From a virus: DNA of 64,000 bases. The notes under the pieces were generated by a model that was not told the origin of the DNA, ran no database searches, and was given only the letters and a program-made list of their open reading frames with translations. Below, piece by piece: positions 59,245-63,853 of the stretch. The stretch covers positions 1 through 64,000 of IMG/VR virus record IMGVR_UViG_3300019487_000026; one strand, written 5' to 3'. Within the stretch, counting starts at the first letter, position 1; each line of letters starts with the position of its first letter. The position numbers and the translations under genes were made by a program.

Positions 59245-59398
59245 TTCTTCACCCTGTTTTCTTTTCTGTTGTCTTTCTTTGAACCTCCATATATACTTTC
59301 ATCCTTGCCTGTTTGAAAGCAGGTTTGGAATTGTTGACCTAGCATATAAATAGGTCGATGATGTGTGAACATTGTTTGTTTTGAACGAAGGATTTGAA

Positions 59399-59530
59399 AT
59401 GCATAACTCGCAACGACATAGCTGGCGCCAACTGAGCAACTCGCTCGGGTTGAGCTCCGTCTGCTCAGAGCGAGATTATATGCGCTTTGAACAGCCTAGC
59501 AGCGCCCTTCGTGGAGGACCTGGAATCTAA
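59399..59530 (+). CDS. 43-aa leader peptide of the tRNA array, ending LRGGPGI
   Basis: GAAGGA SD; MHNSQRHSWRQLSNSLGLSSVCSERDYMRFEQPSSALRGGPGI*; overlaps the antiterminator strand. Confidence 0.7.
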   Translation: MHNSQRHSWRQLSNSLGLSSVCSERDYMRFEQPSSALRGGPGI

Positions 59531-59563
59531 AGTTCTCAAAAAAGATAGACAAACACGAAGGGC
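59504..59563 (+). promoter_or_regulatory. Predicted antiterminator helix
   Basis: GCCCTTCGTG (59504-59513) is the exact complement of CACGAAGGGC (59554-59563), which overlaps the terminator 5' arm. Confidence 0.75.
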
Positions 59564-59593
59564 CTTGAGAGAAATCCAAGGCCCTTTTATTTT
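59558..59593 (+). terminator. Intrinsic terminator (attenuator) upstream of the tRNA array
   Basis: AAGGGCCTTG/CAAGGCCCTT plus TTATTTT. Confidence 0.88.
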
Positions 59594-59707
59594 GGTGTAC
59601 GTGTTGATGCGGAACGTGACTGCGACCCAACACGCAAAAGATAGTCGGTCGAATGGGCGGGTGTCCGGATGAAACCGTGGCGGGAACGCGGGAGTACAAA
59701 AGGCACT

Positions 59708-59763
59708 TGCGTATTCGTATGAGTACGCATTTTCTTGATCATTTCTAAGAGTGATCAAGAAAA
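59708..59763. repeat. Two tandem inverted repeats before the first tRNA
   Basis: TGCGTATTC-GTAT-GAGTACGCA and TTTTCTTGATCATT..AGTGATCAAGAAAA. Confidence 0.8.
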
Positions 59764-59768
59764 TCAAT

Positions 59769-59842
59769 GGTGACTCTAGTGTAGTGGTAGCACAATTCGC
59801 TGTGAACGAGTTAGCCAGGGTTCAATTCCCGGAGCCACCCCA
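59769..59842 (+). tRNA. tRNA-His(GTG)
   Basis: Cloverleaf with G-1 and C73; loop CTGTGAA. Confidence 0.9.
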
Positions 59843-59897
59843 CAATTGGGTTCAATATAAATACGCCTGTTCGGCGAACCGCCGCAAGGAGAATATA

Positions 59898-60314
59898 ATG
59901 AACACCAAAGATCAAGGAAGTCTCGGAGTGCTAGTTGTAATGCAGCAGGCAGTACAAAAAGGGTATATAGTTTGCGTTCCGTATGGTGATAACCAACGAT
60001 ACGATCTTCTGTTTGATAGAAACGGTCAATACCAACGTGTACAAGTCAAATATATAACACCCAAAGATGGAAGAATAAAACTAAAGCTCTTCACTGTAAT
60101 GCATGACAAAAATAGAACCACTGAAAGAAAGTATCGTCGGGTAAAATATACAGCAAAAGATATTGACTTTTTTGCAATTGTGAACGCAAACACACATGAA
60201 GTGTATATGATCCCGTTGAGTGAAATAAATGGGCACTCAGAAATGGTACTTCGAACAGACGAAGATTTGCGTAAAAGTAGCAAGGCTCGTCTAGCTAAGA
60301 ATTATTTGATGTAA
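59898..60314 (+). CDS. PD-(D/E)XK homing endonuclease
   Basis: G..G..GY.V..P.GD..RYDL..RVQVK..Y..DIDFF; AAGGAG SD. Confidence 0.85.
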   Translation: MNTKDQGSLGVLVVMQQAVQKGYIVCVPYGDNQRYDLLFDRNGQYQRVQVKYITPKDGRIKLKLFTVMHDKNRTTERKYRRVKYTAKDIDFFAIVNANTHEVYMIPLSEINGHSEMVLRTDEDLRKSSKARLAKNYLM

Positions 60315-60320
60315 TAAAAT

Positions 60321-60411
60321 GGAAGGTAAACTGACAAGGCGTCAGGCTCGTTTGCTAAACGAAGAGAGCGACCTAACGTTGCTTGAGTTTCGATTACTCT
60401 GCCTTCCTCCA
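60321..60411 (+). tRNA. tRNA-Ser(GCT)
   Basis: GGAAGGT/GCCTTCC; long variable arm; loop TTGCTAA. Confidence 0.85.
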
Positions 60412-60414
60412 AAT

Positions 60415-60457
60415 ATCACCATAGTGAAATTGGAGATCATCTAACCCTGCGAAGGTT
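60415..60457 (+). pseudogene. 5' half of a tRNA-Arg(GCG), truncated by the HNH gene
   Basis: D arm GTGA..TCAT and anticodon arm AACC-CTGCGAA-GGTT; no T arm or 3' acceptor strand. Confidence 0.6.
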
Positions 60458-60487
60458 CGTTTTGGTTTCGCAAGCATAAATAGTGAT

Positions 60488-60928
60488 ATGAAAACAAAAT
60501 ATTGTCCTCGTTGTGAAGAAGATAAAGCACTCGCTGAGTTCTCACATAAGAACAAAGCGAAAAAGATATTAGCTGATCATTGTAAGGTGTGTGTTCGTTC
60601 TTATGCTAAGGAACACTACGAAGCGAACAAGAAACAGTATAAGGAACGAGCAGCTCGTAATCATCAGAAAACGATAGAGTGGTATCGTAAATTGAAAGAG
60701 TCGTTGCAGTGTTGCTGGTGCGGTGAAAAAACTAGTTGTACATTAGATTTTCATCACGTGGATGCCAGCAAAGAGTTTGAGATTGGGACGGGCTTTTACA
60801 AAGTATCTAGGAAAACATTGATTGCAGAATTAGCAAAATGTGTGTGCTTGTGTGCGAATTGTCATCGCAAAGTTCATGCTGGATTGATTGATCTTCCAGC
60901 ACACATAAAGCGCATTACTATAAAGTAA
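60488..60928 (+). CDS. HNH homing endonuclease
   Basis: CPRC..CKVC; C..CG..LDFHH..K..E..KC..LCANCHR..H. Confidence 0.88.
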   Translation: MKTKYCPRCEEDKALAEFSHKNKAKKILADHCKVCVRSYAKEHYEANKKQYKERAARNHQKTIEWYRKLKESLQCCWCGEKTSCTLDFHHVDASKEFEIGTGFYKVSRKTLIAELAKCVCLCANCHRKVHAGLIDLPAHIKRITIK

Positions 60929-60929
60929 T

Positions 60930-61001
60930 ATCGCGTCCGACGGATTCGGGCCTGTGTTTGCGAAACACGGTGAAACCGTTCGACTCGGTTACGCGGTGCC
61001 A
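60930..61001 (+). tRNA. Atypical tRNA-Arg(GCG)
   Basis: ATCGCGT/ACGCGGT-G-CCA; T arm AACCG-TTCGACT-CGGTT; loop TTGCGAA; irregular D region. Confidence 0.7.
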
Positions 61002-61010
61002 AAATATAAC

Positions 61011-61084
61011 GGTGGCATGGTGTAATGGTAGCATAGGAGTCTGTCTAACTCTTGGCAGGGGTTCAATTCCCCTTGTCACCGCCA
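61011..61084 (+). tRNA. tRNA-Asp(GTC)
   Basis: Loop CTGTCTA; G73; CCA. Confidence 0.88.
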
Positions 61085-61085
61085 T

Positions 61086-62456: not shown

Positions 62457-62472
62457 ATCTCAGCTTGATTAT

Positions 62473-62545
62473 GGAGAAGTAGCTTAAGAGAGAGCACGCC
62501 CACTCGGAGGGCGCCGCGATGGTTTAAACCCATCCTTCTCCACCA
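62473..62545 (+). tRNA. Atypical tRNA, probably Arg(TCG)
   Basis: GGAGAAG/CTTCTCC-A-CCA; loop ACTCGGA lacks U33; T loop TTTAAAC. Confidence 0.65.
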
Positions 62546-62562
62546 ATTTTTAGGAGCGTGTT

Positions 62563-62741
62563 ATGAATGACCAAGAATTTAGAAACTAATTGAAGACGCA
62601 TGCACAAAAGTGTCTGACATTGATCTTGCTGATATGCTCAAAGTCAGTAGACCTACAATTGATCGTTGGAGATGTGGTGTTACTTCACCGCACCCCTTCG
62701 CGCGGGCGAGTGTTGCAAGGATTGTAAACGCTCTGAAATAA
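62563..62741 (+). pseudogene. Small HTH protein with an apparent frameshift near 62581
   Basis: AGGAG SD; MNDQEF then out-of-frame DLADMLKVSRPTIDRWRCG..P. Confidence 0.6.
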
Positions 62742-62749
62742 ATACCGGT

Positions 62750-63121
62750 ATGAAACTCCTAGAAGTCATTACCGACGACGAAATTGAACAATTCAAGCAA
62801 GCATTCCATATGTTTATGAACAGTAAACTACGGAATCAATGGCTTGGAGGTGATGTCATTCAGGTATACATGCGGAAGGGCATTCACGTTATTGGTCGTC
62901 AAGCATTCAAGACGCTTGATATCGCAAACATTCAGATCGACGAAAGTGAGCGGGGAAAAGGCGTTGGGATGAGACTGATTGACTGGTTGCATGAACAGAA
63001 TCCCTTTGAAGTTACATACGTAGAGAGCTTGCAGAATCTACGTTTGTATGCAAGTCTTAAGCAACGTGGTTGGATTGATGTTCCAAATTCTCAACCACCT
63101 AGTGTGTATAAAACAAAGTAA
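62750..63121 (+). CDS. GNAT-like acetyltransferase (MKLLEV N-terminus)
   Basis: IANIQI..E.RGKGVG..L; late motif 5 nt upstream of ATG. Confidence 0.75.
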   Translation: MKLLEVITDDEIEQFKQAFHMFMNSKLRNQWLGGDVIQVYMRKGIHVIGRQAFKTLDIANIQIDESERGKGVGMRLIDWLHEQNPFEVTYVESLQNLRLYASLKQRGWIDVPNSQPPSVYKTK

Positions 63122-63124
63122 ATT

Positions 63125-63192
63125 TCTCCGTAGAGCGTGAGGGTTAGCGTACAACGTTTGGGGCGTTGTGGATCAGGTTCGAGTCCTGCTCA
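63125..63192 (+). pseudogene. Truncated tRNA-Pro(TGG)
   Basis: Anticodon arm CAACG-TTTGGGG-CGTTG and T arm present; acceptor unpaired, no CCA. Confidence 0.6.
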
Positions 63193-63206
63193 CACAGCAG
63201 AATAAC

Positions 63207-63280
63207 AGGTCGCTAGTGTAATGGCAGCATGACAACCTCCAAAGTTGTTGGTGGGAGTTCAAGTCTCTCGCGACCTGCCA
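63207..63280 (+). tRNA. tRNA-Trp(CCA)
   Basis: Loop CTCCAAA; G73. Confidence 0.9.
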
Positions 63281-63289
63281 AATTGTAAT

Positions 63290-63368
63290 GCAGCTCTGGC
63301 AGAGGTGGTCCTACATGCGTGTGCCTGAAGAGCACAAGATCTCAGTTCGATTCTGGGGGGCTGCACCA
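63290..63368 (+). tRNA. tRNA-Phe(GAA)
   Basis: Loop CTGAAGA; CCA. Confidence 0.88.
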
Positions 63369-63513
63369 AAGTTTCGAAGTGAATTGTTTCAAGCCGTCTG
63401 AAGGGGTTGCAACTCCGACAGATGTATAATGGATTAGCTCACGACGCGTCCGGGCTTGTTATGAAACGGCGCTTGATCAGCGTTTCTGGCCAAGAACGAG
63501 CGAAAAGATTATT

Positions 63514-63597
63514 GGGCAAGTGGGGGAATTGGCAGACCCACCACTTTGAGAGGGTGGCGCGTAAAGCGTGCAGGTTCGAATCCTGTTTTGCCCACCA
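63514..63597 (+). tRNA. tRNA-Leu(GAG)
   Basis: Loop TTGAGAG; long variable arm. Confidence 0.9.
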
Positions 63598-63600
63598 AAT

Positions 63601-63696
63601 GGAAGATTGGGTGAGTGGCTTAAACCACCTATCTCGAAAATAGGAGGGTCGGGGACTAGCTCGGCTCCGTAGGTTCGAATCCTACATCTTCCGCCA
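63601..63696 (+). tRNA. tRNA-Ser(CGA)
   Basis: Loop CTCGAAA; long variable arm; G73. Confidence 0.92.
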
Positions 63697-63698
63697 AT

Positions 63699-63776
63699 GC
63701 GTTGCTGATGGGAATTGGCAGACCTCATACGCTCAAACCGTATGGTTTCTCGGTTCGACTCCGAGGCAACGCACCA
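63699..63776 (+). tRNA. tRNA-Leu(CAA), short variable region
   Basis: Loop CTCAAAC; A73; CCA. Confidence 0.87.
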
Positions 63777-63779
63777 TTC

Positions 63780-63853
63780 GCGGGTATAGTATAATGGTAT
63801 TATGCGACATTGCCAGTGTTGAGACGTGGGTTCGATTCCCACTACCTGCTCCA
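63780..63853 (+). tRNA. tRNA-Gly(GCC)
   Basis: Loop TTGCCAG; U73; CCA. Confidence 0.9.

Follow-up and report, generated by a model that had tools for sequence, protein, structure and literature searches.

The window considered here comprises the first 64 kb of an 89,343-nucleotide (nt) virus contig from IMG/VR (IMGVR_UViG_3300019487_000026), whose completeness is about 35% (CheckV). Close to its right end, the + strand carries a compact series of elements at the entrance of a region of transfer RNA (tRNA) genes: a promoter motif, a ribosome-binding region, a leader open reading frame (ORF) of 43 codons, an intrinsic terminator, a structured spacer, the gene of tRNA-His and a further promoter motif. 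Promoter, Shine-Dalgarno (SD) sequence, ORF and terminator had been described in an original prediction—which understood them as an attenuator sampling codons for the tRNAs of the array—and all four can be read directly in the sequence. The following concerns the architecture of this element, its conservation in a diverged phage and its possible role as a transcriptional switch in front of phage tRNA genes.

The promoter motif TATAAATA (59345-59352) contains the core ATAAATA, which is a genuine recurring signal: TATAAATA occurs six times in the window with 1.19 expected—a count reached in 0 of 100 shuffles—and most of the 22 ATAAATA sites sit 10-60 nt 5′ of ORF starts on the correct strand. 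We take this signal to resemble the T4 late-promoter consensus. At the position matching the leader promoter, a relative of this phage (L007, introduced below) bears CATAAATA. In both phages, GTTGAC(C/A) is found 4-6 nt 5′ of the leader's (T/C)ATAAATA (window 59334-59352; L007 ~5980-6000), a spacing far too short for a sigma-70 −35/−10 pair, and hence this motif may be an upstream element of the leader promoter. The SD region (59385-59392, with AAGGA at 59388-59392) lies 6 nt before the ATG at 59399, with which the leader ORF MHNSQRHSWRQLSNSLGLSSVCSERDYMRFEQPSSALRGGPGI (59399-59530) begins.

The terminator (59558-59593) consists of a 10-bp G+C-rich stem (59558-59567/59577-59586) and a following TTTTATTTT, as seen by direct reading and by folding. 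This hairpin alone amounts to −20.3 kcal/mol and is part of the minimum free energy (MFE) structure, while a simple hairpin scan lists it under the − strand only. Within codons 36-39 of the leader lies strand A, GCCCTTCGTG (59504-59513), the 5′ strand of a putative antiterminator, which is able to pair with strand B, CACGAAGGGC (59554-59563). As B shares 59558-59563 with the 5′ arm of the terminator, both structures are mutually exclusive. The original prediction had named this complement, and it stands, albeit with B one base to the left of the position claimed. When the upstream RNA is shuffled by dinucleotides, a perfect complement of 10 nt or longer to the arm zone appears in 5/5000 cases, and the energy of the A:B duplex, −21.3 kcal/mol, is reached by 0/2000 shuffles (null −11.7 ± 2.1).

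Folding of the growing transcript gives an order to these pairings. Strand A first pairs with the SD region—ACGAAGG (59385-59391) repeats part of strand B and is complementary to A—and then with B once the latter is made (transcript ends 59564-59577), until the terminator displaces A:B as soon as its 3′ arm exists. The SD:A pairing (7/7 pairs) is thereby present in the MFE structure before B is synthesized and again once the terminator has formed. When a ribosome footprint is modelled in the first half of the leader, A:B forms with 10/10 pairs. With the ribosome modelled at Gly40 in the P site, all of A is masked and A:B is abolished.

The same module is found in a diverged phage, which was retrieved with a degenerate DNA pattern as two IMG/VR contigs, L007 and L008; these are identical over their 6637 shared nt and are hence counted as one phage. 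In L007, the order is promoter, 45-codon leader, A/B, terminator, spacer, tRNA-His(GTG), TAAATA promoter, an ORF of the HNH type and more tRNAs, and the leader shares 46 and 44% identity with that of the window in two alignments. Here, strand A reads GCCCTTTGTG and strand B CACAAAGGGC, so that a C-to-T change in A is matched by a G-to-A change in B. All 20/20 cells of A:B are paired over the two sequences, with one compensatory pair (C-G to U-A) and nine invariant ones. The loop between A and B is identical at only 24/41 columns, and in either phage the stop codon follows A after 15 nt. The relative's spacer is about 119-125 nt long with a fold z-score of −3.24, and the TAAATA promoter 3′ of tRNA-His is at the same position as in the window. 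The genes 5′ of the leader differ—the relative's neighbour is a homologue of window ORF 46056-47621—and hence the leader travels with the tRNA region and not with the upstream operon. As far as two sequences can tell, the claim of a terminator/antiterminator switch in a translated leader whose composition mirrors the tRNAs is supported by a module, a tRNA-His position and a pairing that are conserved across divergence.

The tRNA region opened by this module extends further than previously assumed. The original prediction let the array end at 63853, where the 14 tRNAs found by ARAGORN within the window (59769-63853, mixed with ORFs) end; in the contig, the region continues to 72232 and holds 27 of the 28 ARAGORN tRNAs of the 89-kb contig. 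These serve His, Arg, Asp, Tyr, Met, Glu, Leu, Trp, Phe, Ser, Gly, Pro, Gln, Cys, and Val, and ARAGORN finds none for Asn, Lys, Ile, Thr, or Ala in this region. In the relative, about 48 tRNA hits are arranged in three clusters. Fourteen amino acids are served by its cluster 1, which lies behind the homologous leader, and these are the set of the window's region minus Val. Its cluster 3 carries tRNAs for Lys, Asn, Ile, Thr, Ala, and Val and, at a greater distance, single tRNAs for Arg and Ile. A partition of the tRNAs into clusters by amino acid is accordingly common to the two diverged phages (contig 59769-72232; records G001/G002), and in both the first cluster lacks Asn, Lys, Ile, Thr, and Ala.

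The amino acid composition of the leaders follows this partition. In the window, 39/43 leader residues belong to kinds for which the region has a tRNA (null 0.708 ± 0.077, P = 0.007), whereby the tRNA set used is a partial one, the contig being ~35% complete. All 15 amino acid kinds of the region occur in the leader (P = 0.023), and residue share and kinds are jointly matched by 1/3091 overlapping windows of the proteome. The 18 amino acid kinds counted in the original prediction are correct, but this number by itself is unremarkable (P = 0.24). For leader 1 of the relative, 38/45 residues and 14/14 kinds come from cluster 1 (joint P = 0.0005). In front of cluster 3, the same phage carries a second cassette (L010 2200-2390, record G002), consisting of ATAAATA, a 26-codon ORF MFTTTVITVKVVTNAIKNSQGTLRTN and a strong terminator. 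In this second leader, 19/26 residues are Thr, Val, Ile, Lys, Asn, or Ala—all six kinds being present—a share reached in 0/2152 windows (null 0.351 ± 0.102). Terminators are hence present at both cassettes of the relative, in L007 as well as before cluster 3 in L010. Crossing leaders and clusters gives the opposite picture, as leader 1 contains 15.6% cluster-3 amino acids and leader 3 contains 26.9% cluster-1 amino acids. The second cassette also has an in-ORF strand, GGGGACTCTT, which pairs with the 5′ arm of its terminator and is displaced once the 3′ arm is made (duplex P = 0.0225). Between this leader and the next TAAATA lie 7-8 tRNAs (Lys, Asn, Asn, Lys, a further Lys call, a Val-like hit, Ile, Ile). 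That a single phage has two unrelated leaders, either of which matches its own cluster, is difficult to account for if they are ordinary small proteins.

A larger view of the leader comes from its protein family. A word-indexed protein search gave one 44-residue homologue, plus a second one in its cluster, and a profile search of 1.84 billion representative proteins gave 13 hits at E ≤ 0.001, 12 of them small ORFs of 44-66 residues; together with P0001, P0002, the window and L007, these 12 make a family of at least 16 small ORFs. Its members mostly start with M-Q-H and continue with a variable N-terminal part rich in Gln/Leu/Gly/Ser/His, a conserved core and a variable tail of 5-7 residues, which in the window's leader comes after codon 38. 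In the core, as aligned for 15 members, G17, F30, and P33 are invariant and S20, V21, Y27, R29, E31, A36, and L37 nearly so. At a codon within strand A, Arg and Cys alternate in the family, corresponding to CGT/TGT in the two readable DNAs. The ORF stays open with a common start in all 16 members despite insertions and deletions, and between window and L007 the ORFs differ by whole codons, with seven synonymous changes among 43 aligned codons.

Within this family, composition appears constrained in a position-dependent manner. Codons 1-35 of the window's leader contain all 14 amino acid kinds that define the relative's first tRNA cluster, and the part before A holds all of them in 16/16 members, while amino acids of other clusters make up 50/587 residues before A and 29/93 in the tail after A (Fisher P 2e-8)—figures that overstate independence, since the members are related. 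The sole Cys, Tyr, Trp, and internal Met shift in position among members and are never lost. Composition constrained before A and relaxed after it is what a sensing role predicts, as only codons holding the ribosome away from A would be under constraint. Taken together, the composition of the leader, unlike its codon choice (see below), appears tuned to the tRNAs of the region.

How much of this region depends on the switch is a matter of its promoters. Tandemly behind the terminator follow the spacer (59594-59768), tRNA-His(GTG) with an encoded G-1 (59769-59841), and the next TATAAATA promoter (59856-59863), whose position after tRNA-His is the one conserved in L007; tRNA-His is the sole tRNA between terminator and next promoter. 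The spacer folds with a z-score of −5.07 (0/200 shuffles as stable) and ends on a perfect 16-bp hairpin at 59729-59764, which is A+T-rich, stops 4 nt before G-1 of tRNA-His and may be a processing signal. A weaker terminator-like hairpin lies inside the spacer at 59708-59729. The spacer has no Rfam hit at E ≤ 1, and a search for repeats of it in the contig gave a 13-nt hairpin arm at 76625-76637 as its sole match. Since the next promoter core is at 59857, only the spacer RNA and tRNA-His depend wholly on readthrough. On the other hand, no + strand terminator-like hairpin of at least 10 pairs is found from 59593 to about 76467, past the last tRNA at 72232, so that readthrough could add to the transcription of the whole region, though not as its only source.

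From the sequence elements, the exclusive pairings with one compensatory change, the place in front of tRNA-His and the composition match, we consider it likely, if by no means certain, that the element acts as a multivalent leader-peptide transcription attenuator where the phage tRNA region begins. Seven features were used to define a leader-peptide attenuator, and four of them are found here: an ORF with a ribosome-binding site, a terminator, an exclusive antiterminator and an enriched composition. In this mechanism, the ATAAATA promoter (59346) would initiate a transcript whose 43-codon leader would be translated during synthesis. A ribosome arriving smoothly at the leader end would cover or separate A and B, the terminator would form and transcription would stop. 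If the ribosome were delayed earlier—at a codon for one of the ~14-15 amino acids of the region—A would be left free and pair (59504-59513 with 59554-59563), which would block the terminator and allow the polymerase to continue into the spacer, tRNA-His and the tRNA region. Translation of the leader and the direction of the switch are what we infer from these features, as is the trigger, which might be tRNA loss, poor charging or generally slow translation. The leader switch probably lets the phage make more tRNAs when its ribosomes run short of them. A His-specific attenuator was considered as well, given that tRNA-His comes first and that no leader lacks His; since the conservation of His does not exceed that of the other 13 kinds, this idea was folded into the multivalent one.

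Several points weigh against such an attenuator, in addition to the limits of the composition tests given above. The DNA comparison rests on one independent relative (L007 = L008), there is one compensatory pair only, and its shuffle control (244/500) is uninformative with two sequences. With the 3′ arm complete, the terminator state is favoured by ~9 kcal/mol at every modelled ribosome position, and hence antitermination would need to be a kinetic effect, as it is in classical attenuators. The original prediction had proposed to fold the element with a ribosome footprint, and the outcome is divided: the ribosome at Gly40 abolishes A:B as described, but one at the stop codon masks 4/10 bases of A and leaves A:B with 6/10 pairs. 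Both leaders of the relative are without a clear SD. The internal ATAAATA promoters at 59857, 60476, 62738 and beyond, which precede ORFs within the array and confirm the motifs named earlier, would be able to express most tRNAs without readthrough, so that the proposed sole control of the array by the leader does not hold, one of these promoters being conserved right after tRNA-His. In addition, a simple scan gave no leader cassette for cluster 2 of the relative.

A second group of such points concerns codons and peptide. Codons for nearly every tRNA of the array were said to be present, and indeed 13/14 in-window tRNAs have a cognate leader codon (null 9.98 ± 1.57, P = 0.037), with Gly(GCC) as the exception already named, and 24/27 do so when all tRNAs of the region are taken (P = 0.008). 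However, the five AGC codons counted toward this match have no cognate tRNA-Ser(GCU) among the 28 ARAGORN tRNAs of the contig, and the fraction of leader codons decodable by the array is 0.488 with a null of 0.467 ± 0.087 (P = 0.46). If the peptide is fixed and synonymous codons are resampled, these perform equally well (P = 0.74 and 0.43), and hence there is no codon-level tuning; in the relative, 25/45 leader codons are decodable by the tRNAs of its cluster under strict wobble. Codon-level sampling as stated in the original prediction is therefore not supported, and regulatory codons cognate to the sensed tRNAs are absent from the attenuator features found. Furthermore, F, Q, and P are retained via synonymous changes between window and L007, and the residues of the core keep their order. 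Such a conserved order is not accounted for by mere codon sampling, and the peptide could have a function of its own.

Two further parts of the original prediction did not survive the comparison. The first is a ribosome parked at an RGGP resembling SecM. The SecM arrest motif is conserved and ends in Gly-Pro at the stall site. RGGP occurs in 1/16 leaders, the window's own copy, and the tail after A-L-R/C is variable; a SecM-like stall is thus unsupported and, going by this family, the leader is not an arrest element of the SecM type, as no conserved arrest motif is found. The search proposed earlier for a conserved uORF, terminator and covariation upstream of related tRNA arrays succeeded in L007—with one compensatory pair—save for this RGGP. 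The second is a general sensor of all tRNAs, given that the leader covers the 14-15 amino acids of one cluster and contains few Asn, Lys, Ile, Thr, and Ala residues. A modular scheme can be put forward: in this lineage of jumbo phages, the tRNA genes would be split into amino acid clusters, with leaders that gauge the decoding capacity of their own group and terminators that open on shortage. The groups would be His, Ser, Leu, Pro, Arg, Phe, Asp, Tyr, Cys, Glu, Met, Trp, Gly, and Gln on the one side and Lys, Asn, Ile, Thr, Ala, and Val on the other. We propose this tentatively, as it is slightly more apt to fail than to hold.

The conserved peptide order leads to a different explanation, in which the ORF simply encodes a small protein (a conserved peptide of 43-51 residues) and has its own promoter and a terminator that also closes the upstream operon. 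tRNA-His would then be transcribed by leaky readthrough, and pairing and composition would be incidental. The core shared by the 15 aligned members and the F, Q, and P kept through synonymous changes are just what such a gene would show, and internal promoters could supply the other tRNAs. Left without explanation, however, are the A:B complement with its compensatory change, the fixed adjacency to tRNA-His despite differing upstream genes, a composition match in two phages that is relaxed only after strand A, and the second leader with its complementary composition before the other cluster; we regard this explanation as unlikely, though it deserves to be taken seriously. Somewhat less probable still appears a terminator that is coupled to translation and reports general translation speed or ribosome availability, with the composition bias having another cause. 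To such a device, the same evidence for an RNA switch applies, the codon choice untuned to the array tRNAs fits it well, and the pairing of the SD region with A in the window would allow ribosome loading to set the switch. Yet, the 5′ untranslated region of L007 contains no SD-region complement to A, so that this pairing is not conserved there, and a mere speed sensor does not predict that the two leaders of the relative have opposite, cluster-matching compositions.

Finally, the ORF itself could be incidental to a noncoding structured RNA of ~235 nt from promoter to terminator, or to a riboswitch-like element made of RNA only. The transcript does fold better than shuffles (z −2.56, 3/200 as stable), with its 5′ and 3′ parts pairing in the MFE structure. 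This reading is nevertheless very improbable: it has to face an ORF whose reading frame and start are maintained in 16 members across insertions and deletions, the whole-codon differences and seven synonymous changes between window and L007, and the lack of any Rfam family at E ≤ 1 except a subthreshold match over the terminator.

Some observations on the surroundings of the element may be added. In L007, an inverted repeat TTGGGTTCAA ... TTGAACCCAA (6440-6480) flanks the TAAATA promoter that follows tRNA-His; its left copy is kept in the window (59846-59855), its right copy is not. ORFs with their own ATAAATA promoters are located inside the arrays of both phages (window 59898-60314, 60488-60928, and 62750-63121; L008 2542-3000), and among their products are HNH endonucleases, an acetyltransferase-like protein and a protein of PHROG 5018. 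It may be that the HNH genes inserted as mobile elements and carried promoters into the array. Two ARAGORN calls, tRNA-Arg(GCG) at 60930-61001 and tRNA-Leu(CAA) at 63699-63776, have no Rfam tRNA hit at E ≤ 1 and may be odd or degenerate tRNAs, and a subthreshold tRNA-like Rfam match (22 bits) is found at 63137-63196. Distant from the array, a stand-alone tRNA with a CUA anticodon is located at 45500-45573; ARAGORN labels it tRNA-Pyl, and it could be an amber suppressor.

As to the origin of this DNA, all sampled words of the contig are present in one sequencing run labelled as a cave metagenome. The nearest cultured phages are the jumbo phages Ralstonia RP12, RP31, and phiRSL1 and Achromobacter Motura, with 26-37% identity in one neighbouring protein. 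Among GenBank phages, the leader region has no DNA match beyond tRNA-His and the leader peptide no tblastn match. A leader alignment searched against viral and metagenome contig collections and an exact 30-nt terminator pattern searched against two contig collections gave no match either, and the upstream proteins of 125 and 306 residues gave no related loci in the collections searched; the leader has no repeat elsewhere in the contig. The downstream 138-residue protein matched L002 and L003 only, of which L002 has 34% identity and a different tRNA context. A scan of genome contigs returned L004, a G+C-rich chance match without tRNAs, and the degenerate-pattern matches L005 and L006 were likewise discarded as chance matches, while two further DNA patterns recovered L007/L008 only. 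At the level of sequencing runs, DNA identical to the window over 59200-59656 was found (X2), as well as DNA spanning tRNA-His only (X3). A soil-metagenome contig (X4) bears 18 differences and one insertion relative to the window in 59501-59596. Across 59546-59596, its sole listed change is one base inserted behind 59549, and eight substitutions are listed just before that stretch; the listing covers differences away from the contig end only, and strand A of X4 is not readable.

Leader-peptide attenuation is well known from amino acid operons, where multivalent systems (ilvGMEDA, thr) stand next to those for a single amino acid (trp, his, phe, leu). pheL, which is named in PMC3082878, belongs to the latter class. 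The present element resembles these systems in its short leader, its intrinsic terminator, an exclusive antiterminator whose 5′ strand lies at the leader end, and a leader rich in the amino acids relevant to the downstream genes. In contrast to them, it precedes tRNA genes and not biosynthetic enzymes. Its leader holds ~14-15 amino acids, mostly once or a few times, whereas in amino acid operon leaders one to three kinds form runs. No conserved anti-antiterminator (1:2) hairpin is seen—SD and A pair in the window but not in L007—and the peptide order is conserved across the leader family. T-box riboswitches bind uncharged tRNA directly, without the need of translation. With these, the element shares a terminator/antiterminator decision tied to tRNA status, but it carries a conserved ORF. 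Within 58800-64000, neither a T-box nor any other Rfam family gave a hit at E ≤ 1 apart from tRNAs and the terminator match already mentioned; on these grounds, the window element is not a T-box.

By function, the nearest published system is the trn operon of Anabaena sp. PCC 7120 (PMC8421152, PMC10272220). This is a long tRNA array that is induced under translational stress and controlled at its promoter via direct repeats and the repressor TrcR; in the main texts of both papers, the terms leader peptide, attenuat-, and terminator have zero occurrences. Both are accessory tRNA arrays, and that of Anabaena rises in expression when translation is impaired; unlike the promoter control of that array, the window element would act after initiation via leader ORF and terminator. 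A leader-peptide attenuator in front of tRNA genes has no published account in a full-text literature search, supplements and most subscription journals lying outside its scope.

If the attenuator proposed here is real, it would constitute a direct feedback loop, in which the speed of ribosome decoding sets tRNA transcription, and would extend textbook attenuation from amino acid biosynthesis to the translation machinery itself. The presence of two complementary leaders in one phage makes this idea directly testable and gives a sequence signature with which such switches might be found in other large phages. Phage tRNA genes have been linked to the evasion of tRNA-targeting defences (PMC10264068, PMC11555353). 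Should the leaders indeed gauge their own clusters, these phages would possess a modular on-demand supply of tRNAs, which could counter tRNA-cleaving defences of the host or the decay of host tRNAs during infection.

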